DNA of 64,000 bases. Source: a candidate division FCPU426 bacterium. Its GTDB lineage: Bacteria > Oederibacteriota > JAAXVQ01 > JAUVAV01. The notes under the pieces were generated by a model that did not search any database, had not been told where the DNA came from, and was given only the letters and a program-made list of their open reading frames with translations. The stretch's first letter is position 1; each line of letters starts with the position of its first letter. Of this stretch, positions 1 to 12,185 are shown one piece after another. A program made the translations under genes and the position numbers. The stretch covers positions 863,078-927,077 of the forward strand of contig JBFLYH010000002.1 of NCBI GenBank assembly GCA_040756875.1. Reading direction: 5' to 3'.

Positions 1-1092
1 ACGGCGGATACGATCGAGCAGTTTAAAATCATACGCTCGGAGAATATCACCTGCGATACGACGTTCTATGACACGCTGGAGATCCGTGTGCCGGATATTT
101 ATTATCCTGCAGCCACGCAGTGGACGATCGGGTTGCACGAAGGCGGATATGCAAATTATTTCAGTCTGCACAAACCGAGCGGGGCGACCGGGACGTTTGC
201 CTTTGATTTTTTGCGCGATCTCGGATGGAGCGGGATAAAGACGTTTTATATCGAAGCCAGGGTCACGGCCGATCCCAGTGATTATTTCAAAATGGATTAT
301 GTCCGTGTCTTTCATAATGCGACCGACAAAGTATATTTATGGAGGGAAGAATTCAACGGAGAAATCGCCCTGGCCTGCAAAAACTGGTGGGATGAAAACG
401 AAGACAGCACGCTGAATGCCACCATTAGCCCGGATCCCACGCAAACGTACGCCCAAATCCAAATTGTCGGTCCTGAAATATTCGGAAAAGTAATAACACC
501 GGGCGTGTATTGGAATCCTTCCAAATACAGCCGGGTATCGCTGGGGGTGGTTTCGATTTCTCCCAACACCGAGTGTACGGTGGAAGTGATCGATTTGATC
601 ACCTATCAACATGCCACCCTGGGAACCATCACCCAGGAAGGGACATACGACTTCAATGTTTTCGAGGCGCCGGGCTGGAAATGGACCCAGGAAGAATTGC
701 TCGCGATCCAGGTTTGGGTCAGCGCGGATCAGAGCGGGAAAAACTGCCTGATCGACTACATCCGCATTTATTCGTTCAAGGAGACCACGCCCACTCCCAC
801 CCCCGATATAACGCCGTACTTTCCAGAGGGCGGATATGCCAGGCCGAATCCCTTCCTGCCCACCAGGGGGCAAAAAGCGTCTTTTAATTTCCGCCTCCCT
901 CAGGCGGGTGCGGCTTACACCATCCGTATTTTCAATACCCGTGGCCGGCTGGTGCGGACGCTGGGGACGTCCTCGCGGCCGGAATGGGACGGCAGGGACG
1001 AAATGGGAAATATTTGCGAGGGCGGAATTTATTTTTATCAGATCGAGTCAGGCGGGTGGCGCATCAATGGACAGGTGGTACTGATTAAATGA
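1..1092 (+). CDS. Secreted protein (5'-truncated) with TPTP linker and C-terminal FlgD-Ig / T9SS-like sorting domain
   Basis: Frame is open from base 1, so the true start lies upstream. TTPTPTP linker, then PNPF...IRIFNTRGRLVRTL...WDGRDEMG...GIYFYQI...GQVVLIK, typical of FlgD-Ig/T9SS-type C-terminal domains. Confidence 0.75.
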   Translation, partial: TADTIEQFKIIRSENITCDTTFYDTLEIRVPDIYYPAATQWTIGLHEGGYANYFSLHKPSGATGTFAFDFLRDLGWSGIKTFYIEARVTADPSDYFKMDYVRVFHNATDKVYLWREEFNGEIALACKNWWDENEDSTLNATISPDPTQTYAQIQIVGPEIFGKVITPGVYWNPSKYSRVSLGVVSISPNTECTVEVIDLITYQHATLGTITQEGTYDFNVFEAPGWKWTQEELLAIQVWVSADQSGKNCLIDYIRIYSFKETTPTPTPDITPYFPEGGYARPNPFLPTRGQKASFNFRLPQAGAAYTIRIFNTRGRLVRTLGTSSRPEWDGRDEMGNICEGGIYFYQIESGGWRINGQVVLIK

Positions 1093-3275
1093 GGCGGCGG
1101 ATGAAAACGGAGAGCCGGTTCGTCTTTCGGTGTATCGCAGCCGGCGCCCGGCGGATCGGCACGGCGGCCCTTTTGCTGGCTTGGGCGGGTTCAGCCTTTG
1201 CCTATTTCCAGGATGCGGTGGATGGCGTGCGGCCCGCGGGCATGGGCGAAGCCTTTACCGGCGTGGCTGACGATGTCAACGCCATCCTGTTCAATCCCGC
1301 GGGGCTGGCGCAACTCCGGCAGATCGAAATCAATGGCATGTATTCCGATTTGTTTTCAGGTTTGCATACGCGGCTGTATAACGGGCAATTCGACCATGTC
1401 GGCTATAATTATCTTTCCGTGGCCGTGCCCATCGCCCCCTCGTTAGGGACCGTGGCCGCAGGCTGGGCGCAACTTCATTCGGTGTTTTATAAGGAAAACA
1501 CGTTTATTTTATCGTTCGGCCGCAGCATCTGGGCGCCTTACACCATGGCACTGGGAATCGAAGTCAGCGCCGGCGTCAATCTTAAAGGCTTGCACTGGCA
1601 AGTGGAACCCAACGAATATACCACCAATCCAGATTACTTTCCTTTCGGTGAAAAATACAAAGCGGCGTTTACCGCTGACGCTGGAGTGCTGGCGGCAGTG
1701 GGAGAAACCCTGCGGGTGGGAGCGAGCGTCGATAACATCATTCCCGCCGATGTAGGCTTGGCGGTCCATGAGCAGGTGCCCGTGGTTGTCAGGGCGGGGG
1801 GGAGTTATCGTTGGCCGTGGCGCTGCTGGTCCATGGACTCTTTATTGACGGCGGTGGAAGTGACGGCACGCAATCGGATTTACATACCCAAGGCCGGTGT
1901 CGAATCCTGGTGGTTCAACGAACGTCTGGGAGTCCGGGCGGGGATTCATACCGAAGGGGTAACCGCCGGATTGAGCATCCGCGAGCGGATACCCGAATCC
2001 CCCTTGGGCATTCAGCTGGACTATGCCTTCGCCTATCCTTTCTATGTCGCGGACACCCTGGGGTCCCATCGCGTCGGTTTTCTACTGAGGTGGGATCCGG
2101 CCCCCGTTCTCCCGCCGCCATCGCAATCACCGCTACAGCTGCCCGACGTCTACTTGATTCCCAAAATGCAACTGGCAACGGCGCTCGTGCAAGCGATTAA
2201 CGATGCATCTCAGACCGCCCAGGACCTAGCGGATCGAGCGGAACAGGTGGCCACGGAAACCAGGACGCTGGCCTCCCCCGAAGCCGCCAGCAGAGCGGCC
2301 GCTGAAACCGCCAAACTTACCGAGGCCGCGCAGCAGGTTCGGACCCTTGCCGAGCAGGCGGCGGCACTGGCCAGTCGCATGGCAAAGCTGCGCCAGTTGG
2401 CGGAGGCGGAAGCCGTTTTGAATGAATTGCAAATGATTGAGCAAACAGCCAGCCGCAGGACAACGGAATTAGGCAGGACGCTGGACGAGGTTTACACCGC
2501 GCGTTATTTTGTACCCGAAAAAGACCGAAATACCATTGTCGTCGGCATACAAACCGAAATTTTTTCGGATTTCGGGCCGCGGGAGCAAATCGACCCGAAG
2601 CTGATGATATTGAGAACATATCTTGAAGCGGAAACCGGGATGAAGATCGAATTTCGCGAATACAATATTGACAATCTTAAAAACGATTTCATTCATGGTT
2701 ATATCGATGTTTTGGCCGCCTATTCAGCGGTGTTGCAACCCTATGTGGAATATCAATCGCTTAAGCCGATTGCGACCATTCAGACCAAAGGCCAAACCAG
2801 CCAACCCTGCTGTTTGTTTGCGGCCAATGACCAACCGTTCGCCCGGCCCGAAGATTTGAAAGACAAACGGTTGGGATATTTCCACTCGGAAATCCTTCCG
2901 CACATCAAGGAATATTTTTATCCCGCGAGTGGGCTTTATAACAATCTTCATTATTTTAGAAACACCTTTAAATTCAAAAACGGTCCGGATGCCTTGGGTG
3001 CACTGCAAATGAAAGGCGTGGATGCCATCGTGGGGTTCGCTTATATGCTGAAAATAGCGGACAATCTCAATGCGGAATATCCCATTGGCATTAAATGCAT
3101 TGCGAAATCAAAGCTGATCCCCAATCAACCGCTCTATTACCGCCCGTCGAGAAATCCGGTGAAACAGCAGCAAATGAATCTGTTGGCGGATGCCCTGTTG
3201 CGTTTTCACGAGAATCCCGCGGCGGAGTCTTTCTTGAATTACTTCGGAATCGACCGCTTTGTGCCGGTCCAGTAA
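1089..3275 (+). CDS. PorV/PorP-like outer-membrane beta-barrel fused to coiled coil and PhnD-like (phosphonate-type) periplasmic binding domain
   Basis: Signal peptide (AFA|Y); GVRPAGMGEAFTGVADDVNAILFNPAGL N-terminal motif; barrel end QLDYAF...LGSHRVGFLLRW at ~aa335; Pro linker; Ala/Glu-rich helix aa~360-465; YLEAETGMKIE...EDLKDKRLG...VDAIV...CIAKSKLIPNQPL PBP-like domain. Confidence 0.7.
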   Translation: MRRRMKTESRFVFRCIAAGARRIGTAALLLAWAGSAFAYFQDAVDGVRPAGMGEAFTGVADDVNAILFNPAGLAQLRQIEINGMYSDLFSGLHTRLYNGQFDHVGYNYLSVAVPIAPSLGTVAAGWAQLHSVFYKENTFILSFGRSIWAPYTMALGIEVSAGVNLKGLHWQVEPNEYTTNPDYFPFGEKYKAAFTADAGVLAAVGETLRVGASVDNIIPADVGLAVHEQVPVVVRAGGSYRWPWRCWSMDSLLTAVEVTARNRIYIPKAGVESWWFNERLGVRAGIHTEGVTAGLSIRERIPESPLGIQLDYAFAYPFYVADTLGSHRVGFLLRWDPAPVLPPPSQSPLQLPDVYLIPKMQLATALVQAINDASQTAQDLADRAEQVATETRTLASPEAASRAAAETAKLTEAAQQVRTLAEQAAALASRMAKLRQLAEAEAVLNELQMIEQTASRRTTELGRTLDEVYTARYFVPEKDRNTIVVGIQTEIFSDFGPREQIDPKLMILRTYLEAETGMKIEFREYNIDNLKNDFIHGYIDVLAAYSAVLQPYVEYQSLKPIATIQTKGQTSQPCCLFAANDQPFARPEDLKDKRLGYFHSEILPHIKEYFYPASGLYNNLHYFRNTFKFKNGPDALGALQMKGVDAIVGFAYMLKIADNLNAEYPIGIKCIAKSKLIPNQPLYYRPSRNPVKQQQMNLLADALLRFHENPAAESFLNYFGIDRFVPVQ

Positions 3276-3287
3276 AAGGATGAAGGA

Positions 3288-4565
3288 ATGAGTGCGAGCA
3301 TCATGGTTAGAAAGCATTGGCCGGTGATCGTCGGCGGAGTCATCCTAGGCATGACCTTGTCCGCCGTGGGTGTCATATGGATGAATATCAGGGATTTCGA
3401 GCGTCAGCGTAATCGCGAACACTTTGATCTGGCGCAGAACATCGCCCGGACGTCCATGGTGTTCATTAACAACTTGCAGTACGATTATTTCCATCAAATC
3501 ATCAGACTGTTGACCCAGATCTCCTTTATTCCCTACATGGATGTCAATCTCGAAGGCAAGACCGTCCTGCGCAGCGGCTTGGCGCCGGAGCGGTTTCCGT
3601 CATGGCCGGAACGCGCCGCCGACTCGTGGGTCCATTTGGACGCGAAGCAAAATCTGGTGTTTGTTCAGCAGCCGCTGGAACTGAAAGGCGTCAGGAACGC
3701 GGAATTGCGCATGGTATTTTCGCAGGCCGGATTTCAGCAGTCCAAGCAGATGATCGGATATGCCATTGTTTTAATCCTCGTCCTGTTGAGTCTGACCCTC
3801 TTTTTCATGTCTCTGCTGGCCCGTGCCCACCTGGCTCTGGCCCAGGCGGAGAAAAACAAGTCGGAAATGATCCGCCGCATTGCCCACGACGCCAAACAGG
3901 AATTGACGGTCATTGTCGGAAAAACCGCGGTCAATCTGAGCAGACTGAAAAAAGGCCCCGGCAACGAGCAGTTGGAACGGGATTTGAAGCTGACGCAGGA
4001 GAGCGCCGAGTCCATCGAAAATTATCTGAACAACTTGAACGACCAGAGCAAACTCGCCGCCGGACAGACTGAAATCATTGCCGCGGACATCGATATTGTC
4101 AAAGTCATCAGAAACGTTTTGGAAAGCCACGCCGAAACCGTGGCGCAGTACGGTTTGAAATTCATTTTTGAACCGGCCGCCGCCCCTTGCCGCGCCTGGG
4201 CTGATCCGCACGCCGTCAAACGGGTCCTGGTCAACCTGATCCACAATGCCATCAAGTATTCAAGCCCCGGTAGCGTGATCGAGATCAAAGTCGAAACCAA
4301 CGGCTTATGGCAGAAATTATTCGTCCGCGACCAGGGCGCGGGCATTGCCCCGGAAAACTGGGAAAAAATCTTTGAACCGTATGTTCAAATCGATCCCAAA
4401 GGCAAAGGCATGGGGCTTGGCTTGACGAATGCCAGGCAATTGATCCGGCGTTTGGGAGGCGAACTGAAAGTGATCGCGAGCCAAAAGGGCAGGGGAACGA
4501 CTTTTGCATTCACGCTTCCCATCCACGAGATGTCAACCCCGGTCACGGAAGGAAGGGCGACATGA
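3288..4565 (+). CDS. Membrane sensor histidine kinase (2 TM, periplasmic domain)
   Basis: Two TM helices, H-box IAHDAKQEL, N-box NLIHNAIKYS, DQGAGI, G2 GMGLGL. Confidence 0.9.
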   Translation: MSASIMVRKHWPVIVGGVILGMTLSAVGVIWMNIRDFERQRNREHFDLAQNIARTSMVFINNLQYDYFHQIIRLLTQISFIPYMDVNLEGKTVLRSGLAPERFPSWPERAADSWVHLDAKQNLVFVQQPLELKGVRNAELRMVFSQAGFQQSKQMIGYAIVLILVLLSLTLFFMSLLARAHLALAQAEKNKSEMIRRIAHDAKQELTVIVGKTAVNLSRLKKGPGNEQLERDLKLTQESAESIENYLNNLNDQSKLAAGQTEIIAADIDIVKVIRNVLESHAETVAQYGLKFIFEPAAAPCRAWADPHAVKRVLVNLIHNAIKYSSPGSVIEIKVETNGLWQKLFVRDQGAGIAPENWEKIFEPYVQIDPKGKGMGLGLTNARQLIRRLGGELKVIASQKGRGTTFAFTLPIHEMSTPVTEGRAT

Positions 4566-5959
4566 CCAAAATACTGGTATTGGACGACGAAGTCCTGGTT
4601 TTGGAAACCATCACCGGCATCCTGCAGGGCGAAGGCTACACAGTGGAATCGAGCCGGCAGACGGAAGGGGTCCTGCAACGCATCGCCGACTTTAATCCCG
4701 ATCTGGTCACTTTGGATCTTCGCTTTGGCGACGATGAAATGGCGGGCGTCAAAGTGATCCAGCAGATCCGGGGGAAGTATTCGCGGGAGCAGCTTCCCAT
4801 CATTGTGATCAGCGGCCGCGGAGACGCCGTGAAGCTTAAGCAGCTTCTCAAACAGGGGTTGGATGACTACATCTACAAACCGTTCAAATCGGAAGAGTTG
4901 CTGGAAAAAGTTCAAACCAGCTTGGCCAGACGCCAGCCCAGCCGTGAAAACGGGCGCGAGCGGATTGACACCGAGATGATCGGCGGTCAAGCGATCATGG
5001 ACCTGATGCTCAAACTGGAGCGCCGGGCGAAAGCGCAATTGGACACTCTGATTTTGGGGGAAAACGGAACCGGCAAGGACATGTTTGCGAAACTGTATCA
5101 CCAACTCAGCCCGAGGCAGGACCAGCCGTTTTACCACATCAACTGTCCGGCCATCCCGCCCACTTTATTCGAGGCGGAAATCTTCGGCCGGGAAAAGGGG
5201 GCCTATTCCGGCGCCGTGTTCAGCCGCGGAAAAATCGAAGAGGCGGCCGGGGGCATCGCCTTTTTCAATGAGATTGGGGAACTGAATCTGGACGTGCAGG
5301 CCAAATTGCTGCATTTGTTCGACACGGAAAAGAAGACTTTTTGCCGCGTGGGCGGCAATCAACCGATTGAACTGGATGTCATCGTCATTGCGGCCACCAA
5401 CCGCAATCTGGAGCAAATGGTCAAGGAGGGTCGCTTTCGGCAGGATTTGTTTTATCGCCTTAAAACCGAACCCATCGTGCTTCCTCCGCTCAGGCAGCGG
5501 CGCGAAGACATACCCCTGCTGATCGATTACTTCATCAAAAAATACAACCAGCGCTTCAGAAAAAACATACAGCCTGCCGCACCCTCCTTGGCGGCACGAA
5601 TTTCGAAACTGGAGCTGTCCGGAAACGTCAGGGAACTGGAGAAAGGGCTGGAAGTGGCAGTGGGCAATTGCCGCGGCAATAATTTGGCCTGGGAGGATTT
5701 TGCCGATTTTTTTCCATCCCACCCCGATACGCTGCCACAACCGGGCGGCGAGAAAAGCATTTACGAATTGGACTATCTGGCCATGCGCGAGTATGTCAAA
5801 GGCAAGACCGAAGAGTTGGAGAAGGATTACCTCCAATACCATTTGGCTCAAAACGGGTTTAATCCCACCCAAACTGCCGTGAAGCTGAACATGAAAAACA
5901 CCAAGTACATTTACGAGCGTATGCGTTTGCTCAACATTAAGTTGAATGAGTATAACTGA
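4562..5959 (+). CDS. Sigma54-dependent response regulator (REC-AAA+-HTH, NtrC family)
   Basis: REC domain (LVLDDE...TLD...KPF), Walker A GENGTGKD, GAYSGA loop, VIAATNRNL, FRQDLFYRL, GNVREL, Fis-like C-terminus; ATGA overlap with the HK. Confidence 0.93.
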   Translation: MTKILVLDDEVLVLETITGILQGEGYTVESSRQTEGVLQRIADFNPDLVTLDLRFGDDEMAGVKVIQQIRGKYSREQLPIIVISGRGDAVKLKQLLKQGLDDYIYKPFKSEELLEKVQTSLARRQPSRENGRERIDTEMIGGQAIMDLMLKLERRAKAQLDTLILGENGTGKDMFAKLYHQLSPRQDQPFYHINCPAIPPTLFEAEIFGREKGAYSGAVFSRGKIEEAAGGIAFFNEIGELNLDVQAKLLHLFDTEKKTFCRVGGNQPIELDVIVIAATNRNLEQMVKEGRFRQDLFYRLKTEPIVLPPLRQRREDIPLLIDYFIKKYNQRFRKNIQPAAPSLAARISKLELSGNVRELEKGLEVAVGNCRGNNLAWEDFADFFPSHPDTLPQPGGEKSIYELDYLAMREYVKGKTEELEKDYLQYHLAQNGFNPTQTAVKLNMKNTKYIYERMRLLNIKLNEYN

Positions 5960-6227
5960 CTATAAAGATATTGAAGTAGTAAGGCATATCCGTACCGAAG
6001 TCAGGCCTCCCCTTACTTGATTCCCCTATTTCCTAGCAGTCGGCAGACCATGGGAGATCCCGGCGCCGGAGGCGCATCTTGAGTGGCAGTGGGTATGTTT
6101 TATGGGAAAGAAAAAACAGGACAAAACCTAAGCAAATAAAACGTTTTTGCAACCATCGCGAACGTTAGTTTCCCTGGCCTCCTTGGTGGCTTTTTTTGGC
6201 AAGCATACCAGAGGAAGGAATAAAACC

Positions 6228-6243
6228 TGGCACGGTTTCTGCT
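6228..6243 (+). promoter_or_regulatory. Sigma54 (-24/-12) promoter
   Basis: TGGCACGGTTTCTGCT versus consensus TGGCACG-N4-TTGCW (one mismatch), correct GG-N10-GC spacing, 48 bp upstream of the ECF start. Confidence 0.8.
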
Positions 6244-6291
6244 CTAACATAATAGCGGGCAAAAGCAGCTTTACCACGCCAGGGGGGAAGA

Positions 6292-6867
6292 ATGAAAAAC
6301 CTTGAACCGCTGAACGACGAAAAATTACTGCTCATGCTTCGCCGGGGATCAAAGGATGCCGGAGAAGTTATTTTTAAACGGTATTACCCGGCGGTGCTGG
6401 GGCTGAGCCGGAAATACCTGTGTTGCCAACATGACGCCGAAGACATTGCCCAGGAAGTTTTCTTACGCGCCTTGGCCATGGATAAAATAAGGAAGTTCAG
6501 GGGAGAAAGCAGCCTACGTACCTGGCTTTTTAGGATCGCCATCAATTTGTGCTATTCCAAGCACCGTAAACACCGGGAAAAGTTGCTGCTCAACGACGAA
6601 AAGCATCCGGAACCGGTTATTCCCTCGGGAGGCCCTGACCCCGAGGAAGAGGCCATGCGCCTGGAAGCGAAGCATCAACTGCGGGTGGCGCTGTGGAAGC
6701 TTCCGAAAAAGTATCAAACCGTGATCGCGCTTTTTTATCAGGACCAACGGACGTACAGCGACATCGCGAAAACCCTTCGGCAGTCCGTGGGAAGTATCGG
6801 CGTGTGCTTGAAACGCGGCCGGGCCATCTTGAACCGGCGATTGGCCTACCGGGGCGTATGGGTTTAA
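6292..6867 (+). CDS. ECF (group 4) RNA polymerase sigma factor
   Basis: DAEDIAQEVFL, FRGESSLRTWLFRIAIN (region 2); LPKKYQTVI...TYSDIA...GSI...LKRGR (region 4); GGGGGAAG RBS. Confidence 0.92.
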   Translation: MKNLEPLNDEKLLLMLRRGSKDAGEVIFKRYYPAVLGLSRKYLCCQHDAEDIAQEVFLRALAMDKIRKFRGESSLRTWLFRIAINLCYSKHRKHREKLLLNDEKHPEPVIPSGGPDPEEEAMRLEAKHQLRVALWKLPKKYQTVIALFYQDQRTYSDIAKTLRQSVGSIGVCLKRGRAILNRRLAYRGVWV

Positions 6868-6992: not shown

Positions 6993-7538
6993 ATGGAAAG
7001 CAGGCAGTGGGTAGTAGGCACGATGGCCGTATTGGGTTTGTTGGTTGCAGCCGGATGCGCGCAACCGCCGGAGCAGGAAAAGGGCGCCGCGCAGACAGCC
7101 ATGCAGGCCGCACTCCAAGGCGGGGCCGAAACCTATGCGATGGCGGCTTGGAATGAAGCCAAGACCAAATGGGACGCCGCCGAGCAGCAGATGCAGCAGA
7201 AAGTGTATGCCCAAGCGAAAGTGGCGTACTTGGAAGCCAAAGCCGCTTTTGATTCATCTCTGGGCCAGGTCGAAGCCGGCAAGCAGAGCATGATAGCCGC
7301 CAACCAAACGGCATTGGCCGAGATGGAAAAGAGTTGGAGTGAAGCCACGGCGTTGTCTAAAAAAGCCATGAAAAAAATGTCGGTTGAATTAAAACAAGCC
7401 TGGACCGCGGAATCCAAAATGGTGGATGACGCGTTGAAAACGGCCAAGGACAACCTGGCGGCTCCGGCCGAAATTAAGCAAAAATTGGATGAAGTCAAAG
7501 CGTTGGTCGATAAATGGCTGGGTGAATTAAAAAAGTAA
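6993..7538 (+). CDS. Helical lipoprotein (DUF4398-like)
   Basis: Lipobox VAAGC, GGAGG RBS, all-helical A/K/E-rich sequence, followed by a terminator. Confidence 0.7.
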   Translation: MESRQWVVGTMAVLGLLVAAGCAQPPEQEKGAAQTAMQAALQGGAETYAMAAWNEAKTKWDAAEQQMQQKVYAQAKVAYLEAKAAFDSSLGQVEAGKQSMIAANQTALAEMEKSWSEATALSKKAMKKMSVELKQAWTAESKMVDDALKTAKDNLAAPAEIKQKLDEVKALVDKWLGELKK

Positions 7539-7588: not shown

Positions 7589-7901
7589 ATTTATAAACGT
7601 ATATAATAAAAGAAGCCTGCTTTTCCGGTTCGTCTTATCCGCAGTCGTCCCCAGTCGACAGCTCGTTTGGGAATTTGGTCTGGAGGCATAAAAAAGTCTT
7701 TCAATTCCTCCCGGGCGTTATATAGTAAAGCCGGGCGAAGGCCTGCGGCGCAGGGCAAACCGCCGCGGACCCGAGGCGGCTTTCGGCCAAAGAAACCCTG
7801 GACGCGTTCGTTCATCCCATCAAAAAGGAGTGCCTTCGCCGGGGTGATCTGGCGAGCGCATTTCCAATCCAAGCAACAGCCGTTTGCCAGGAGGAACCGA
7901 C

Positions 7902-8948
7902 ATGAAAAAAAACAATCTGGTTTTAACGGTACTAGTGCTGGGCATGCTGGTTTTTCTTTCGGTGGGATGCGGACCCGGGCAAAAAACGGGGCAAAGCCAG
8001 GTCCTTTATCATTGCACCATGCACCCTCAAATCATCCGGGACCATCCCGGGAAATGTCCGATCTGTGGCATGGATTTAGTTCCATTCACACCTCCGGCCA
8101 CCCCCGAAGCGACGAAGCCCGGCCTTTCGTCCGAAGGAAGCGCGATGACCATGCCGCAACAGGACCAGGCGGTCGAGGTGGATGTCCGCCGCCAGCAGCT
8201 CATCGGCGTCAAGACGGTCGTAGCTACGCGGCGAACGCTGGAAAAGACCCTGAGGGTGCAGGGAGAAGTGGCGCACGATCCGGAGATGTACCAGGCCCAG
8301 GCCGAATATCTCCGCGGCCTGGCAGCCGGTGGCGAAGGGGGGTTGCAGAGCGCCAGCCGTTTGAAACTGGAGCACATGGGCATGAGTCCTGATTTGATCC
8401 GCCGCCTGGAACGGCGCGGGCGGCCGCAGCGCAACCTGTTCGTCCGGGACCAGGACCCGGTATTTTGGATCTATGTTTATTTCTACGAGGCCGACCTGCC
8501 GTTTCTTTCGCTAGGGCAGCCGGTTGCCGTCCGGGTGCCCAGGCTGGGCGGACAACATGACGGCGTTTTGAGGGGTTTGCAGCCGTACGTGGAGCCGGCC
8601 GCCCGCACAATCCGGGGCATTGTGGAAGTGCGCGATCCTGAATTGCGGTTGTATGCCGGCTTGTATGCGGATGCCGAGGTTCGCCTGACGCTGCCCGAAG
8701 CAGTGGTCATCCCAGCCTCGGCCGTGCTCGATTCCGGCACCCGGCAGGTCGTGTTTGAGCTGACCGGGCCGGGCCGGTTTGAACCGCGGGAAGTGCAGAT
8801 CGGCGCCGTGGCGGGCGAATTCGCCCAGGTGCTAACCGGAGTGGAAGCCGGCGCCAGCGTGGTGACGGACGGGAACTTCATGCTCGACGCCGAAAGCCGC
8901 CTGCAGTCGGTGGTGAAAGAGACGGCTCCGGCCGGCCACCAGCACTAG
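7902..8948 (+). CDS. cusB: CusB-family heavy-metal efflux RND periplasmic adaptor
   Basis: YHCTMHPQI...PGKCPICGMDL heavy-metal-binding domain; MFP body; GNFMLDAESRL; AGGAGG RBS before ATG 7902. Confidence 0.88.
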   Translation: MKKNNLVLTVLVLGMLVFLSVGCGPGQKTGQSQVLYHCTMHPQIIRDHPGKCPICGMDLVPFTPPATPEATKPGLSSEGSAMTMPQQDQAVEVDVRRQQLIGVKTVVATRRTLEKTLRVQGEVAHDPEMYQAQAEYLRGLAAGGEGGLQSASRLKLEHMGMSPDLIRRLERRGRPQRNLFVRDQDPVFWIYVYFYEADLPFLSLGQPVAVRVPRLGGQHDGVLRGLQPYVEPAARTIRGIVEVRDPELRLYAGLYADAEVRLTLPEAVVIPASAVLDSGTRQVVFELTGPGRFEPREVQIGAVAGEFAQVLTGVEAGASVVTDGNFMLDAESRLQSVVKETAPAGHQH

Positions 8949-9023
8949 CGGACCCGCTCGCGGCGCCTTCCCGGACGGTCCGGATCGGCGCCGGAATCTT
9001 TGCTGCCAGGGAGAGTCGTGCCT

Positions 9024-12000
9024 ATGCTGTCCAAGTTAATCGCCTGGTCCATCCGCAACCGCATCCTGGTCACCCTGCTGACGATCCTGGTCATCGGCTG
9101 GGGGGCTTATGCCCTGGTAAAAACACCGGTGGACGCCATCCCGGATTTATCCGACGTGCAAGTCATCCTCTACACCCAGTATCCCGGGCAATCACCCCGC
9201 GTCGTGGAAGACCAGATCACCTATCCCCTGACCACGGCCATGGTCTCAGTGCCGGGTGCCCAGGCCGTACGGGGGTATTCTTTCTTTGGCTACTCGCTGG
9301 TCTACATTATTTTTAAGGACGGCACGGATCTGTATTGGGCCCGGAGCCGCGTCCTGGAGTACATCAATTACGCCCAGCAGCGCCTGCCTGCCGGCGTGCT
9401 GCCGATCCTGGGGCCGGACGCCTCGGGGGTGGGCTGGGTGTACCAGTATGCGCTGGTCTCGGACCAACGCCCCCTGCATGAGCTGCGCTCGCTGCAGGAT
9501 TGGTATTTGAAATACGAACTGGCGAGCGTTCCCGGCGTGGCCGAAGCCGCCAGCCTCGGCGGCTTCGTCAAACAGTACCAAGTGACCGTCGATCCCAGCC
9601 GCCTGCAGGCGCTGGGCCTCACGCTGGGAGACGTGGAGGCGGCCATCAAAGCCGGCAACCAGGACACGGGCGGCGAAGTGGTGGTGCTGGGCGAGCGCGA
9701 GTACATGATCCGGGGGCTGGGATACCTCAAATCCATCGGCGATTTGGAGCAATTGCCGGTGGCCTGGCGCCCCAACCAGCAGGGCGGCACCCTGCCGGTG
9801 TATCTCAAGGACGTGGCAGACATCCGGCTCGGGCCGGAAATGCGCCGCGGCGTGGCCGAACTCGACGGCCAGGGCGAAACCGTGGGCGGGATCGTGGTCA
9901 TGCGGTTCGGCGAAAACGCCCGGGACGTCATCCGCCGCGTGAAGCGCAAGCTGGAAGAGCTCAAGGCCGGGCTGCCGGCGGACGTGCGGATCGTGCCGGT
10001 GTATGACCGGTCCCGGCTGATCACGCGGGCCATCGACAATCTGCGTGGCAAGCTCTTCGAGGAAATGCTGATCGTGGCCCTGGTCTGCCTGATGTTTCTG
10101 TTTCACGCCCGGAGCGCGCTGGTGGCGGTGTTCACGCTGCCGACGGCCATCCTGATGTCTTTCATCGTCATGCGCAGCCAGGGCATCAATGCCAACATCA
10201 TGTCCCTGGGCGGGATCGCCATTGCCATCGGCGCCATGGTCGACGCCGCCATCGTCATGATCGAGAACGCCCACAAACACCTGGAACGGGAAGAGGCGCT
10301 GCCGGCCCGGCGGCGCCGGCCGCACTGGCAGGTCATCCTGGAGGCTTCGCAGGAGGTGGGGCCGGCCCTGTTCTGGTCCCTGCTGGTGATTACCGTCTCG
10401 TTCGCGCCCATTTTCGCGCTGGAGGCGCAGGAAGGGAGATTGTTCCGGCCGCTGGCGTTCACCAAGACTTACGCCATGGCGGCCGCGGCGCTTTTGGCCG
10501 TGACCATCGTGCCCGTGCTGATGGGGTTCTTCATCCGCGGGCGCGTTCCGTCCGAAGCCAGCAATCCCGTGAACCGCTGGCTGTTGCAGCGCTACCACCC
10601 GCTGGTGCAGTGGGTCCTGCGCCATGCCCGGGGCGTGCTGCTGGCCGCCGCGGGGGTCGTGGCTTTGGGCGCGGTGCCGCTGCTGCGCCTGGGCACGGAA
10701 TTCATGCCGCCCCTCTTCGAAGGCGACCTCCTGTATATGCCTACCACCCTGCCCGGATTGTCCATTGCCGCGGCCCGCGACTTGCTGCAGCGGACCGACC
10801 GCCTGATACGCTCTTTTCCCGAAGTGGAGCGCGTGTTCGGTAAAATCGGGCGGGCCGAAACCGCCACCGACCCCGCCGGGCTGGACATGATCGAGACCAC
10901 GATCCAGCTCAAGCCCCGCAAGGCCTGGCGCCGCGGCCTGACGGAAGCGAAGCTGATCGCGGAGCTGGACCGCACGGTGAAGCTGCCGGGGCTGACCAAC
11001 GCCTGGACCATGCCGATCAAGGCGCGCACGGACATGCTGGCCACGGGGATCAAAACGCCGGTGGGAATCAAGCTGTCAGGGCCGGACCTGGGCGAATTGC
11101 AGCGCCTGGGGACCCAGATCGAGGCGGTTCTGCGCCGCGTGCCGGGAACGGGATCGGCCTTTGCCGAGCGGGCCATGGGGGGATATTATCTGGACATCGC
11201 CATCGACCGGCCGGCCGCGGCCCGCTACGGCGTCAATGTGGAGGACCTGAACCGGGTGATTCAAATGGCCCTGGGCGGCATGAACGTCACCACCACGGTG
11301 GAAGGGCTGGAACGGTATCCGGTCAACGTGCGCTACAGCCGTGAATTGCGGGACAGCGTGGAATCCATCCGGCGCGTGCTGGTGGCCACGCGGACCGGCG
11401 GGCAAGTGCCCTTGGCGCAAGTGGCGGACATCAAGCTGTCGCCCGGGCCCATGGTCATCCGCACTGAAAACTCACGGCCGAACGCCTGGGTCTTCGTGGA
11501 CGTGCGGGGCGTGGATCTGGGGACGTACATCCACCGCGCTCAGACGGCCATCGGGAAAGCGCTGCGACTGCCGGAGGGGTACACCCTGACTTGGAGCGGC
11601 GAATTCGAATACCTGCAGCGGCTGCACCGCCGGCTGCTGCTGGTGGTTCCCCTGACGCTCTTCATCATCGTGCTGATCCTATATCTCAACACCCGCTCCC
11701 TGGCCAAGACCGCCATCGTACTGCTGGCCGTGCCGTTTTCCCTGGTCGGCGCCCTGTGGTTTGTCTACGCGTTGGGATACAATTTAAGCCTGGCGGTCTG
11801 GGTGGGCCTGATTGCGCTCGCCGGCCTGGACGCGGAAACCGGCGTGGTGATGCTGTTGTATCTGGACCACGCTTACGAGGCGGCGCGCAGCCGCGGCCGT
11901 ATGAACGGGCTTTCCGATTTGCGCGTTGCGATCGACCAGGGGGCGGTCCAGCGTGTGCGCCCCAAAGTCATGACCGCGGCCGTCATCATTGCAGGCTTGC

Positions 12001-12185
12001 TGCCGATTTTCTGGGGCGCGGAGGCCGGGTCGGACCTGATGCGGCGGATTGCGGCTCCCATGATGGGCGGGGTGGTGACCTCGGTGCTGATGGAGCTGGC
12101 CGTGTATCCGGCGATTTATTATTATTGGCGCGGGTGGCGCTGGCTGCGGCCCGGACGCCGCGCGGAAAAACCCTTGCCAGCATAG
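9024..12185 (+). CDS. cusA: CusA/CzcA heavy-metal efflux RND permease (Cu/Ag type)
   Basis: PVDAIPDLSDVQVI, DLYWARSRVLEY, GAMVDAAIVMIENAH, EGDLLYMP, RVRPKVMT. Confidence 0.95.
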   Translation: MLSKLIAWSIRNRILVTLLTILVIGWGAYALVKTPVDAIPDLSDVQVILYTQYPGQSPRVVEDQITYPLTTAMVSVPGAQAVRGYSFFGYSLVYIIFKDGTDLYWARSRVLEYINYAQQRLPAGVLPILGPDASGVGWVYQYALVSDQRPLHELRSLQDWYLKYELASVPGVAEAASLGGFVKQYQVTVDPSRLQALGLTLGDVEAAIKAGNQDTGGEVVVLGEREYMIRGLGYLKSIGDLEQLPVAWRPNQQGGTLPVYLKDVADIRLGPEMRRGVAELDGQGETVGGIVVMRFGENARDVIRRVKRKLEELKAGLPADVRIVPVYDRSRLITRAIDNLRGKLFEEMLIVALVCLMFLFHARSALVAVFTLPTAILMSFIVMRSQGINANIMSLGGIAIAIGAMVDAAIVMIENAHKHLEREEALPARRRRPHWQVILEASQEVGPALFWSLLVITVSFAPIFALEAQEGRLFRPLAFTKTYAMAAAALLAVTIVPVLMGFFIRGRVPSEASNPVNRWLLQRYHPLVQWVLRHARGVLLAAAGVVALGAVPLLRLGTEFMPPLFEGDLLYMPTTLPGLSIAAARDLLQRTDRLIRSFPEVERVFGKIGRAETATDPAGLDMIETTIQLKPRKAWRRGLTEAKLIAELDRTVKLPGLTNAWTMPIKARTDMLATGIKTPVGIKLSGPDLGELQRLGTQIEAVLRRVPGTGSAFAERAMGGYYLDIAIDRPAAARYGVNVEDLNRVIQMALGGMNVTTTVEGLERYPVNVRYSRELRDSVESIRRVLVATRTGGQVPLAQVADIKLSPGPMVIRTENSRPNAWVFVDVRGVDLGTYIHRAQTAIGKALRLPEGYTLTWSGEFEYLQRLHRRLLLVVPLTLFIIVLILYLNTRSLAKTAIVLLAVPFSLVGALWFVYALGYNLSLAVWVGLIALAGLDAETGVVMLLYLDHAYEAARSRGRMNGLSDLRVAIDQGAVQRVRPKVMTAAVIIAGLLPIFWGAEAGSDLMRRIAAPMMGGVVTSVLMELAVYPAIYYYWRGWRWLRPGRRAEKPLPA

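Follow-up and report, generated by a model that had tools for sequence, protein, structure and literature searches.

Related signaling systems

In cell-surface signaling, as carried out by FecA-FecR-FecI and by SusC-like transducers with their anti-sigma/ECF partners, a barrel and a periplasmic signaling domain lead to an ECF output. The locus described here likewise joins an outer-membrane barrel with a periplasmic domain to an ECF sigma factor as its probable output, but it has no TonB-dependent receptor, N-terminal signaling domain or anti-sigma. A histidine kinase serves as inner-membrane partner, and control of the ECF appears to lie in its synthesis and not in its release. A second relative is AioXSR, a three-component system made up of the PBP AioX, the kinase AioS and AioR, an RpoN-dependent regulator (PMC5908839). 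As in AioXSR and ArrXSR, the gene for the PBP immediately precedes those for a kinase that senses the periplasm and for an NtrC-type activator with a sigma-54 output (PMC5908839). Here, however, the PBP is not free but is fused, as C-terminal domain, to an outer-membrane barrel, the sigma-54 promoter targets an ECF gene instead of an enzyme operon, and the module includes a secreted surface protein.

A third comparison comes from Pseudomonas syringae, whose HrpR and HrpS are without receiver domains, unlike the activator of the present locus, a response regulator of the classical, phospho-accepting kind that is paired with a kinase and an accessory sensor of its own. The chain from HrpRS through sigma-54 to HrpL (ECF32) has been described as the best-known example of ECF control at the transcriptional level (PMC8999054), and the ECF of the present locus resembles HrpL in having no anti-sigma and in its predicted dependence on a sigma-54 promoter that an enhancer-binding protein opens. 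Its likely regulon differs, consisting of surface-protein genes and not of a type III system. The paper re-classifying ECF sigma factors does not mention sigma-54, enhancer or NtrC in its main text (PMC7826278).

Type IX secretion (T9SS) offers two further parallels. T9SS cargo genes paired with PorP/SprF-like or PorV/PorQ genes show the same succession of a CTD cargo gene and its own small barrel gene (PMC9143113, PMC12618676), and the barrel here has the 14-strand fold of PorV; unlike those barrels, it carries a 390-residue periplasmic extension that ends in a sensor PBP and is apparently wired to a kinase. Related logic is already in print for Porphyromonas: surface PorA was found in association with PorV, and in P. 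gingivalis the PorA C-terminal domain (CTD) directly binds the kinase PorY within the periplasm and activates PorXY-SigP, a two-component system whose action runs through an ECF sigma factor (PMC12152298). That system and ours have in common a CTD cargo, a two-component system, an ECF and genes of the same secretion/display pathway. They differ in that a PBP fused to a PorV-like barrel would stand here between CTD and kinase, that the regulator is a sigma-54 activator with the ECF controlled at its promoter, and that the host lies outside the Bacteroidota.

Layout and conservation of the module

The module occupies the start of the 64-kb stretch of DNA that was analysed (the window; Table 1). 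The host, a groundwater bacterium that has not been cultured, belongs to the Firestonebacteria group. The tight gene coupling claimed in the initial annotation is present: the start of the fusion gene overlaps the cargo stop codon in an ATGA, a second ATGA joins the activator start to the kinase stop, and the 12-nt gap between fusion and kinase genes contains a ribosome-binding site. The same annotation had described the block as less GC-rich than the core genes, and module GC is indeed lower, at 53.2% against 60.2% for the genome, without being extreme (11th percentile among 7-kb windows).

Table 1. Features of the module, in window coordinates.
Feature	Position	Strand	Remarks
Cargo (surface-protein) gene	start 230 nt before window, end 1092	+	ORF runs off 5' edge
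Barrel-PBP fusion gene	1089-3275	+	728 aa
PorV-like outer-membrane barrel, 14 strands	1323-2093	+	residues 79-335 of fusion; AF2 model
Three long helices	2157-2501	+	residues 357-471 of fusion; AF2 model
PhnD/AioX-type binding domain	2532-3263	+	residues 482-725 of fusion; family match and AF2 model
Sensor histidine kinase gene	3288-4565	+	425 aa
Sigma-54 activator (bEBP) gene	4562-5959	+	465 aa
Imperfect palindrome	5979-5995	+	just 3' of activator stop codon
Sigma-54 (-24/-12) promoter element TGGCACGGTTTCTGCT	6228-6243	+	pattern match
ECF sigma factor gene	6292-6867	+	191 aa

Synteny was compared over 15 fusion loci in 8 related genomes. The kinase is kept in 14 of the 15 and the activator in 13; 12 have a CTD cargo gene immediately next to the fusion gene, often translationally coupled; and an ECF gene is adjacent in 8, a count that includes as negative at least one locus (L031) ending at a contig end right after the activator. 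Given that the set is kept while the loci fall into at least three gene orders, selection seems to act on the set rather than on an inherited order. Copies are also numerous, with three activator-ECF modules in the host genome, including that of the window, and up to five modules per genome in relatives, as counted by PBP-domain matches.

The surface protein and the barrel-PBP fusion

In the cargo protein (440 aa), a signal peptide and a pair of CBM-like beta-sandwich domains are joined to a conserved CTD of the T9SS type, the matches to which are weak and all below cut-off (FlgD_ig 1e-5, CHU_C 9e-5, Por_Secre_tail 5e-4). Both sandwiches and the CTD appear in its AF2 model (pLDDT 72), the best Foldseek match of which is a tandem CBM22 (1e-7) with a low TM-score. 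The CTD is the best-conserved part, and the N-terminal domain is common to 13 of the 2444 called genes of the genome, which we call the cargo family. A SprA-like frame of the genome matches in pieces only, below cut-off.

The fusion protein begins with a signal peptide and was modeled at pLDDT 81. Its PBP domain matches Phosphonate-bd above cut-off (57 bits), while the barrel matches the PorV/PorQ family at E 2e-10 and 40.6 bits, below the 90-bit cut-off. Foldseek on the model returned ArrX (7l22, 1.5e-16), AioX (6esk, 2e-14) and 8gl6_F (8.7e-10), a chain of the RemA-CTD-bound T9SS complex which we take to be PorV, with 7t1m also among the matches; a profile search against the PDB gave ArrX (2.6e-12) and AioX (3.9e-9). 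Among solved structures, the PBP domain is thus closest to the signaling PBPs ArrX and AioX, and the barrel is closest to PorV. Other barrels of the same lineage carry OmpA or TPR extensions in place of a PBP.

A reading of the fusion as a plain sensor of small ligands is unlikely, though it is the most serious of the alternatives considered. The ligand-bound PBP domain would then activate the kinase, the ligand being an oxyanion, as for AioX, ArrX and PtxB, or a hydrophobic or sterol-like compound; it might enter through a FadL-type barrel serving as channel or anchor and not as cargo reporter, and the surface protein would be just something that the cascade turns on, or else a protein that is co-transcribed without being related to it. 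The PhnD fold of the domain, which in solved members binds small anions, speaks for this, as does the FadL architecture common to PorV-type barrels. So do the matches of several paralogous PBP domains to the sterol carrier BstB (E 1e-5 to 3e-10), together with the 7t1m match, and the many paralogs with diverged PBP domains, which would fit many ligands. In the second module of the host genome, moreover, the PBP is a free 304-aa protein beside a TolC-like outer-membrane protein, yet still stands upstream of kinase, activator and ECF. Such a sensor would, however, leave the adjacent and often coupled cargo gene unexplained. Nor is it favored by the few invariant PBP positions, six over 21 fusions (G486, G537, D540, L639, D645 and K692), by the lack of transporter genes accompanying the PBP, or by the conserved Cys-Cys strand of the fusion, to which no AioX cysteine aligns, the arsenite-binding residue of AioX being Cys106 (PMC5908839).

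In favor of a contact between PBP domain and kinase, mean identity over 105 pairs is 27% for the PBP domain, 28% for the kinase sensor domain, 37% for the kinase core and 43% for the barrel, and the fast divergence of the first two, the fastest-diverging parts, fits a co-diverging interface.

Kinase and activator

The kinase matches HisKA and HATPase_c (Pfam/NCBIfam), and Pfam reports no HAMP domain in it. A hydropathy scan places membrane helices at residues 11-34 and 152-185, with a periplasmic domain between them that spans some 117 aa (nt 3390-3740); a DHp domain with His200 and then an ATPase domain make up the C-terminal part. H200, the N box and the G box are invariant across 15 homologues. 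In the activator, Response_reg (77 bits) and Sigma54_activat (181 bits) matches correspond to a receiver domain (D9, D52, K106) and an AAA+ domain, followed by a conserved DNA-binding-like C-terminal tail. Alignment of 16 homologues shows a sigma-54 contact loop of GAYSGA against the consensus GAFTGA, and a Walker B motif with Asn-Glu instead of Asp-Glu, which recurs in 6 other homologues; consequently, the ATPase could be slow or altered. The palindrome behind the activator gene has 19 of 25 aligned columns in common with a same-genus ortholog, where, in this one comparison, it is perfect, and is weakly suggested as a candidate activator-binding site.

Co-encoding of CTD cargo, kinase, response regulator and ECF, with the CTD as the best-conserved cargo part, also brings to mind the sensing of a secretion backlog as with PorA: export flux would be reported by cargo CTD that, not yet out of the periplasm, binds directly to the kinase or to the tethered PBP, and the barrel would merely position the sensor at the export site. 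We regard this as improbable despite the PorA-PorY precedent. PorX is a different kind of regulator, which binds SigP and acts at the protein level, whereas the present module has a sigma-54 AAA+ activator as its response regulator and an ECF apparently controlled at the promoter; moreover, the PBP domain would be left without a role.

Probable control of the ECF sigma factor at its promoter

The ECF protein matches Sigma70_r2 and r4_2, as well as TIGR02937 above cut-off (101 bits), and consists of regions 2 and 4 alone, without extension. The near-consensus -24/-12 box reported directly upstream of its gene was recovered: TGGCACGGTTTCTGCT lies 64 nt upstream of the ECF start, is off consensus at one position (CTGC for TTGC), and places the predicted transcription start near 6254. 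Nothing else in the window matches TGGCACN5YTGCW, for which 0.15 matches would be expected; since 14 of 100 shuffles contain at least one match, the element is by itself only suggestive, and its weight derives from conservation. All eight adjacent ECF genes in relatives are preceded by a strong box, 48-89 nt upstream of where ECF similarity begins, with scores of at least 13.5 of 15.5, a level reached by 3.75% of random 350-nt windows. Genome-wide, two of the nine intergenic matches to the pattern lie upstream of ECF genes that follow activators, and the third activator-ECF pair has a weaker box, TGGCATGCTTCTTGAA. The genome encodes rpoN (222 bits).

The distribution of anti-sigma genes points the same way. 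Five of the eight ECF genes in the genome are followed immediately by a zf-HC2 anti-sigma gene; no such gene lies beside the three sigma-54-driven ones, and with all five zf-HC2 hits behind the other five ECFs, no unassigned zf-HC2 anti-sigma is left anywhere in the genome. No anti-sigma domain was found in the ORFs downstream of module ECFs in relatives either. The gene after the window ECF (6993-7538) encodes a helical lipoprotein, in agreement with the initial claim that no anti-sigma follows, and has its own sigma-70-like promoter (TTGACG-17-TAAAAT).

That these genes are neighbors without a shared pathway, and the box a chance match, is very improbable. The shuffles do show that a single box can arise by chance in 64 kb, but chance would not account for a gene set that 13-14 of 15 loci keep under varying gene order, for boxes before every adjacent ECF in relatives and both paralogous ECFs of the genome, or for the absence of anti-sigma genes exactly at the sigma-54-driven ECFs. 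Of the four observations named beforehand as able to overturn the proposal, the analysis covered three, namely unconserved synteny, a genome without rpoN, and a cognate anti-sigma encoded elsewhere; instead, synteny is conserved, rpoN is present, and every zf-HC2 hit belongs to another ECF. Because of synteny, rpoN and the zf-HC2 partition, the predicted chain from activator through sigma-54 to an ECF without anti-sigma is well supported, and with it the original proposal that output occurs through ECF transcription and not through anti-sigma release.

Likely output of the module

Three intergenic sites in the genome carry an ECF-type motif, TGTAAT-N17-CGTC, and each stands 84-129 nt upstream of a cargo-family gene, one of them being that of the window operon. 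As the motif was defined from the window's own site, only two of the sites are independent, and one of the three belongs to a cluster at whose head stands another sigma-54-driven ECF gene. For two of the motif promoters, same-genus orthologs keep both blocks, with diverged spacers. The likely candidate targets of the ECF are thus its own cargo operon and two paralogous surface-protein genes. Feedback onto the operon is not general, however, since the cargo gene of another paralogous module has a sigma-70-like promoter instead of the ECF-type motif (read by eye), and since one related locus (L038) has a sigma-54 box upstream of its cargo operon and no adjacent ECF.

A proposed route from the cell surface to surface-protein genes

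Taken together, the earlier reading is partly supported. The explanation that we favor, with a probability of roughly 55%, joins both halves of the pathway: the kinase and sigma-54 activator, encoded beside the barrel-PBP fusion, would turn on the ECF from its sigma-54 promoter in response to a relay from the surface. From the fusion itself, the gene order and the likeness to AioX/ArrX and to PorV, we infer that this relay runs from cargo to barrel to tethered PBP to kinase. The barrel would hold the surface protein encoded beside it by the CTD, much as PorV does with the tails of its cargo, and the PBP domain would hang from the barrel into the periplasm on the helical linker. There the PBP domain may touch the periplasmic domain of the kinase, in the way proposed for AioX and AioS, and this contact would pass on the state of the surface protein or of a bound ligand. 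The kinase would then phosphorylate D52 of the activator, which would open the sigma-54 promoter, and the ECF, made without any anti-sigma, would read TGTAAT-N17-CGTC promoters, acting on its own operon as positive feedback and on two other genes of the cargo family. The module is thus likely to report on the cell surface and to switch on surface-protein genes.

Organization of the module and its neighborhood

The window spans contig C2:863078-927077 of a 3.22 Mb genome that is 100% complete. The five genes of the module all lie on its forward strand, and their spacing bears out the tight coupling proposed in the initial annotation: the cargo and fusion genes, like the kinase and activator genes, share an ATGA overlap, and a 12-nt gap separates fusion from kinase. 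Genes for CreD, DUF2148 and BatD lie 5' of the module and are unrelated to it. Between 13 and 6 kb before the window (locus L002:1994-9126), one Pfam scan found an 808-aa ORF with RHS-repeat matches and a 1524-aa ORF with a Tc-toxin TcA/TcB-binding domain and PKD domains.

Features of the module and of its 3' flank (coordinates in window nucleotides)
Feature	Start	End	Strand	Details
Cargo gene	230 nt before window	1092	+	440 aa
Barrel-PBP fusion gene	1089	3275	+	728 aa
Kinase gene	3288	4565	+	
Sigma-54 activator gene	4562	5959	+	
Activator-ECF spacer	between 5959	and 6292	+	332 nt
ECF sigma factor gene	6292	6867	+	191 aa
Sigma-70-type promoter of lipoprotein	6884	6912		TTGACG-17-TAAAAT
Helical lipoprotein	6993	7538	+	181 aa; lipobox LVAAGC; directly 3' of ECF
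Strong terminator-like hairpin	7556	7586		between lipoprotein and cusB

The helical lipoprotein is exported and is 75% identical to its counterpart in the same-genus genome, where a sigma-70-type promoter, read by eye, likewise stands before the gene; its ortholog has a weak DUF4398 match. Next, at 7884-12185 (+), come genes for a CusB-like adaptor, which includes a heavy-metal-binding domain, and for a pump of the CusA/AcrB type. The order ECF-lipoprotein-CusBA is retained in the same-genus genome (locus L029), and no tie to the ECF was found. Control of these genes by the ECF was considered and rejected: the lipoprotein has a strong sigma-70-type promoter of its own and the hairpin precedes cusB, so that lipoprotein and CusBA are treated here as mere neighbors.

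A probably sigma-54-driven ECF without an adjacent anti-sigma factor

The near-consensus -24/-12 box that had been claimed upstream of the ECF is indeed present at 6228-6243, departing from TGGCAC-N5-TTGCW at one position (CTGC), with its GG and GC ten bases apart. It is the sole match to the pattern TGGCACN5YTGCW in the window, and 14 of 100 shuffles also give a match; because the box is weak when taken alone, its weight rests on comparison. In relatives, a box stands before every one of the eight module ECFs, 48-89 nt upstream of where ECF similarity begins, with scores of 13.5-15.5 out of a possible 15.5, whereas random 350-nt windows reach a score of 13.5 in 3.75% of cases and 14.5 in 0.3%. 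Further, rpoN, without which the initial annotation would have abandoned the cascade, is present in the genome. The pattern occurs there 17 times, nine times in intergenic sequence, and two of these nine sites precede ECF genes behind an activator gene, namely the window's ECF and one on contig C1. The third activator-ECF pair, on contig C2, has a weaker box, TGGCATGCTTCTTGAA, ahead of a 125-aa ORF and the ECF.

In the kinase, a periplasmic domain some 117 residues long lies between two membrane helices, and no HAMP domain was reported. The activator matches Sigma54_activat (PF00158, 181 bits) and the receiver family (PF00072, 77 bits), and its receiver residues D9, D52 and K106 are invariant across 16 homologues. 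Its contact loop reads GAYSGA against the family consensus GAFTGA; among the 16 module activators aligned the loop also appears as GSFTGA, NAFTGA, GAHSMA and other forms, and Walker B is Asn-Glu in seven of them, the window's included, the Glu being invariant. Both the Asn-Glu Walker B and the loop variation are unusual for sigma-54 activators and may reflect altered ATPase activity or coupling. An inverted-repeat scan returned only one weak palindrome (6151-6166). Given that the spacer measures 332 nt here and about 180 nt in the same-genus ortholog, and that only a short palindrome near the activator stop aligns between the two, no firm activator binding site can be named.

A cognate anti-sigma factor is typically, if not universally, encoded beside an ECF. 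The ECF of the module consists of regions 2 and 4 only (PF04542 and PF08281 over cut-off; TIGR02937, 101 bits). By tblastn the genome has eight ECF genes, and each of its five zf-HC2 anti-sigma matches immediately follows one of the five ECFs not driven by sigma-54; the genome-wide search for the zf-HC2 class found none beside the three sigma-54-driven ECFs. In relatives, the ORFs 3' of module ECFs encode cargo proteins, barrels or unrelated enzymes, or are small and match no family. The claim that no anti-sigma gene follows the ECF is thus upheld, and a cognate zf-HC2 factor elsewhere, which would have counted against the cascade, is likewise not in evidence, as every such match adjoins another ECF. 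The lipoprotein, which is exported, has its own sigma-70-type promoter and has an ortholog with a weak DUF4398 match, is not an anti-sigma factor. The genome is a compact example of two modes of ECF control, in which the sigma-54-driven ECFs have no zf-HC2 anti-sigma factor and all the others do. The regulatory wiring, running from the activator through sigma-54 to the ECF, is well supported by comparison.

Conservation and sister modules

A search with the fusion across 41 genomes of the phylum returned full-length matches in relatives and many paralogs, and the window's domains were mapped onto each of 15 fusion loci from eight genomes. Of the 15, 14 have the kinase next to the fusion (L040 lacks it), 13 the activator (absent in L040 and L034), and eight an ECF, with L031 cut directly after the activator. 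A CTD cargo gene sits immediately alongside in 12 loci and 3.3 kb off in one more; the remaining two loci run into a contig edge. Three orders recur: cargo-fusion-kinase-activator-ECF, cargo-kinase-activator-fusion-ECF, and ECF-cargo-fusion-kinase-activator. That content is kept as order is shuffled argues for a functional unit, and the co-occurrence of fusion homologs with kinase, activator, ECF and, in eight of eight cases, a strong box answers the synteny check that had been proposed.

In one relative, L038, the order is cargo-kinase-activator-fusion, and at L038:4794 (+), 154 nt upstream of the cargo gene, there is a perfect sigma-54 box, TGGCACGCCCGTTGCA, with no adjacent ECF; judging from this arrangement, the activator may drive the cargo operon directly.

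The genome under study also has two sister modules. On contig C1, kinase-activator-box-ECF opens a cluster that spans about 45 kb (1393170-1439538; L023-L025), and the ECF is followed by some 40 kb encoding giant proteins (up to 3163 aa) with the cargo N-terminal domain. One giant protein of this cluster has Kelch repeats, and the cluster also encodes three PorV-like barrels, the last of which is a TPR fusion. On contig C2 (360898-367289; L027), a TolC-like outer-membrane protein, a free PhnD-type PBP, a kinase and an activator precede the weaker box, the 125-aa ORF (which has no family matches) and the ECF, after which comes a 2443-aa FG-GAP protein with Por_Secre_tail. Both sister modules show the logic of the window module with other sensors.

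The barrel-PBP fusion

The AF2 model of the fusion (pLDDT 81 overall) has a 14-strand barrel at residues 79-335 (pLDDT mostly 80-94), a linker at residues 357-471 made up of three helices, each some 35 residues long, and, at residues 482-725, a class II binding fold. As modeled, the barrel is of the 14-strand FadL type, like solved PorV. Foldseek matches it to chain 8gl6_F of the substrate-bound type 9 complex at E 8.7e-10 with a target-normalised TM-score of 0.60; we take this chain to be PorV. The family-level assignment is less firm: the score against the PorV/PorQ family NF033709 is 40.6 bits (E 2e-10), under the curated 90-bit cut-off. Likewise, 22 of 25 fusion relatives match NF033709 at the N-terminus, all under cut-off, and a SprA-like frame of 2149 aa, the genome's candidate for the SprA/Sov translocon, has five TIGR04189 matches whose scores (22-78 bits) stay below the cut-off of 200 bits. 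The genome has at least 27 PorV-like barrels (tblastn). Near relatives of the barrel (P0012-P0019, 44-51% identity) bear OmpA or TPR domains where the PBP would be, which argues that the barrel is a platform for various periplasmic modules in this lineage.

The C-terminal domain scores 57 bits against PF12974, above the 27-bit cut-off. Its nearest relatives, by profile and by fold, are ArrX (profile 2.6e-12; fold 1.5e-16, TMt 0.73-0.77 by Foldseek) and AioX (profile 3.9e-9; fold 2e-14). No ABC transporter genes occur in the module, in which the PBP is accompanied by a kinase and a response regulator of the sigma-54 type. AioX is a free periplasmic binder of an arsenic oxyanion through Cys106 (PMC5908839), whereas the PBP here is fused to a barrel. 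An arsenite-type cysteine was considered and rejected: the conserved Cys-Cys strand of the domain aligns with non-cysteine positions of AioX and ArrX, and for that reason no ligand can be named. The PBP domains of four fusion paralogs (P0032, P0034, P0035, P0037) match the sterol-carrier family BstB at E 1e-5 to 3e-10, which hints at hydrophobic ligands for some of them.

The fusion is rare. PBP-domain relatives occur in 11 of 99 phylum-sample genomes, confined to two families of one order (8/11 and 3/4, the genome under study included), with none in the other 84 genomes of the sample; of the 25 matches, 19 are in frames of at least 587 aa. A search of 1.84 billion representative proteins with the PBP domain yields just 36 matches at a threshold of E 0.001; 26 of the matching proteins measure 586-850 aa and are matched at the C-terminus (these 26, less the window's own, are the 25 relatives scanned against NF033709). 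An alignment query against 185,579 species genomes gave, among the best 80 loci, four that match through the PBP part, two of them titled Candidatus Firestonebacteria and two uncultured bacterium, the other 76 being barrel-only matches from many phyla; a scan of the species genomes' contigs with the single fusion protein as query found no relative. Database records name the fusion only as 'PhnD/SsuA/transferrin family binding protein', and no description of a barrel-PBP sensor fusion was found in open-access literature text.

The cargo protein and the likely ECF output

The cargo protein has a signal peptide and a tail that weakly matches FlgD_ig, CHU_C and Por_Secre_tail, all under cut-off. 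Its model (pLDDT 72) comprises two beta-sandwiches and the tail, and in fold it comes closest to tandem carbohydrate-binding modules (E 1e-7), though with low TM-scores, on account of which it is called CBM-like and no more. A protein atlas search gave sub-threshold leads only (best score 0.88; CBM-like families 0.86-0.87). The cargo N-terminal domain is present in 13 of the 2444 called genes of the genome.

The motif TGTAAT-N17-CGTC, which has the shape of classical ECF promoters, lies 129 nt upstream of the cargo start, outside the window. The form TGTAA[TG]-N16-18-CGTC has 15 matches in the genome, three of which fall in intergenic sequence no more than 400 nt from a gene start. Each of the three precedes a gene with the cargo N-terminal domain; besides the one upstream of the cargo gene, these promoters lie at C1:1403792 and C2:782352. 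Same-genus orthologs of two of these promoters read TGTAAG-N17-CGTCA and TGTCAT-N17-CGTCT, the blocks being kept and the spacers changed. In a weight-matrix scan the three sites score 18.5-21 against 13.7 for the next best, the matrix having been trained on the same three sites. We infer that an ECF of the sigma-54-driven group reads this motif, in which case the module would be under positive feedback and two other surface proteins would be induced along with it. This feedback would not be general, given that another paralogous module has a sigma-70-like promoter (read by eye) ahead of its cargo gene and that L038 has its box with no ECF nearby.

A proposed signaling mechanism and its implications

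The fusion, the gene order, and the behavior of PorV and AioX lead us to infer two binding steps, in which the cargo tail would bind the barrel and the PBP domain would bind the kinase. On this basis a tentative mechanism can be put forward, to which we give a probability of roughly 0.3: an outer-membrane type IX carrier barrel would hold a glycan-binding-like surface protein by its tail, the fused PBP would tell the inner-membrane kinase whether the surface protein is present, loaded or lost, and each of the several paralogous barrel-kinase pairs of a genome would serve as a dedicated connection between a single surface protein and a single sigma-54-driven ECF. The main rival is that the PBP domain senses a small ligand, a reading supported by the free PBP of the C2 sister module and by the scores of some paralogs against BstB. 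Across 15 modules, the PBP (mean identity 27%) and the kinase sensor domain (28%) are the fastest-diverging parts and diverge at similar rates, set against 43% for the barrel and 37% for the kinase core, a pattern that fits a private interface or differing ligands alike.

The component logics of the module are of known kinds. It resembles AioXSR as a three-component sensor (PMC5908839), HrpRS-HrpL in the sigma-54-to-ECF step (PMC8999054), and PorA-PorXY-SigP in its cargo-to-ECF feedback logic (PMC12152298). What is new is that a sensor PBP is fused to a type 9 carrier-like barrel, that a single operon unites the three logics, and that this combination is multiplied within genomes.

The module thereby joins kinase accessory binding proteins, sigma-54-to-ECF cascades and type IX style surface display, themes that are usually separate, in a candidate phylum without cultured members. 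Because the rare fusion physically couples an outer-membrane protein to the accessory sensor of a kinase, it offers a concrete, testable case of envelope signaling without TonB or anti-sigma factors, and the small size of the parts allows them to be rebuilt in E. coli, where the wiring could be tested with no need to culture the organism itself. If the proposed surface-protein mechanism is true, it would represent a previously undescribed principle of cell-surface signaling, independent of TonB receptors and anti-sigma factors.
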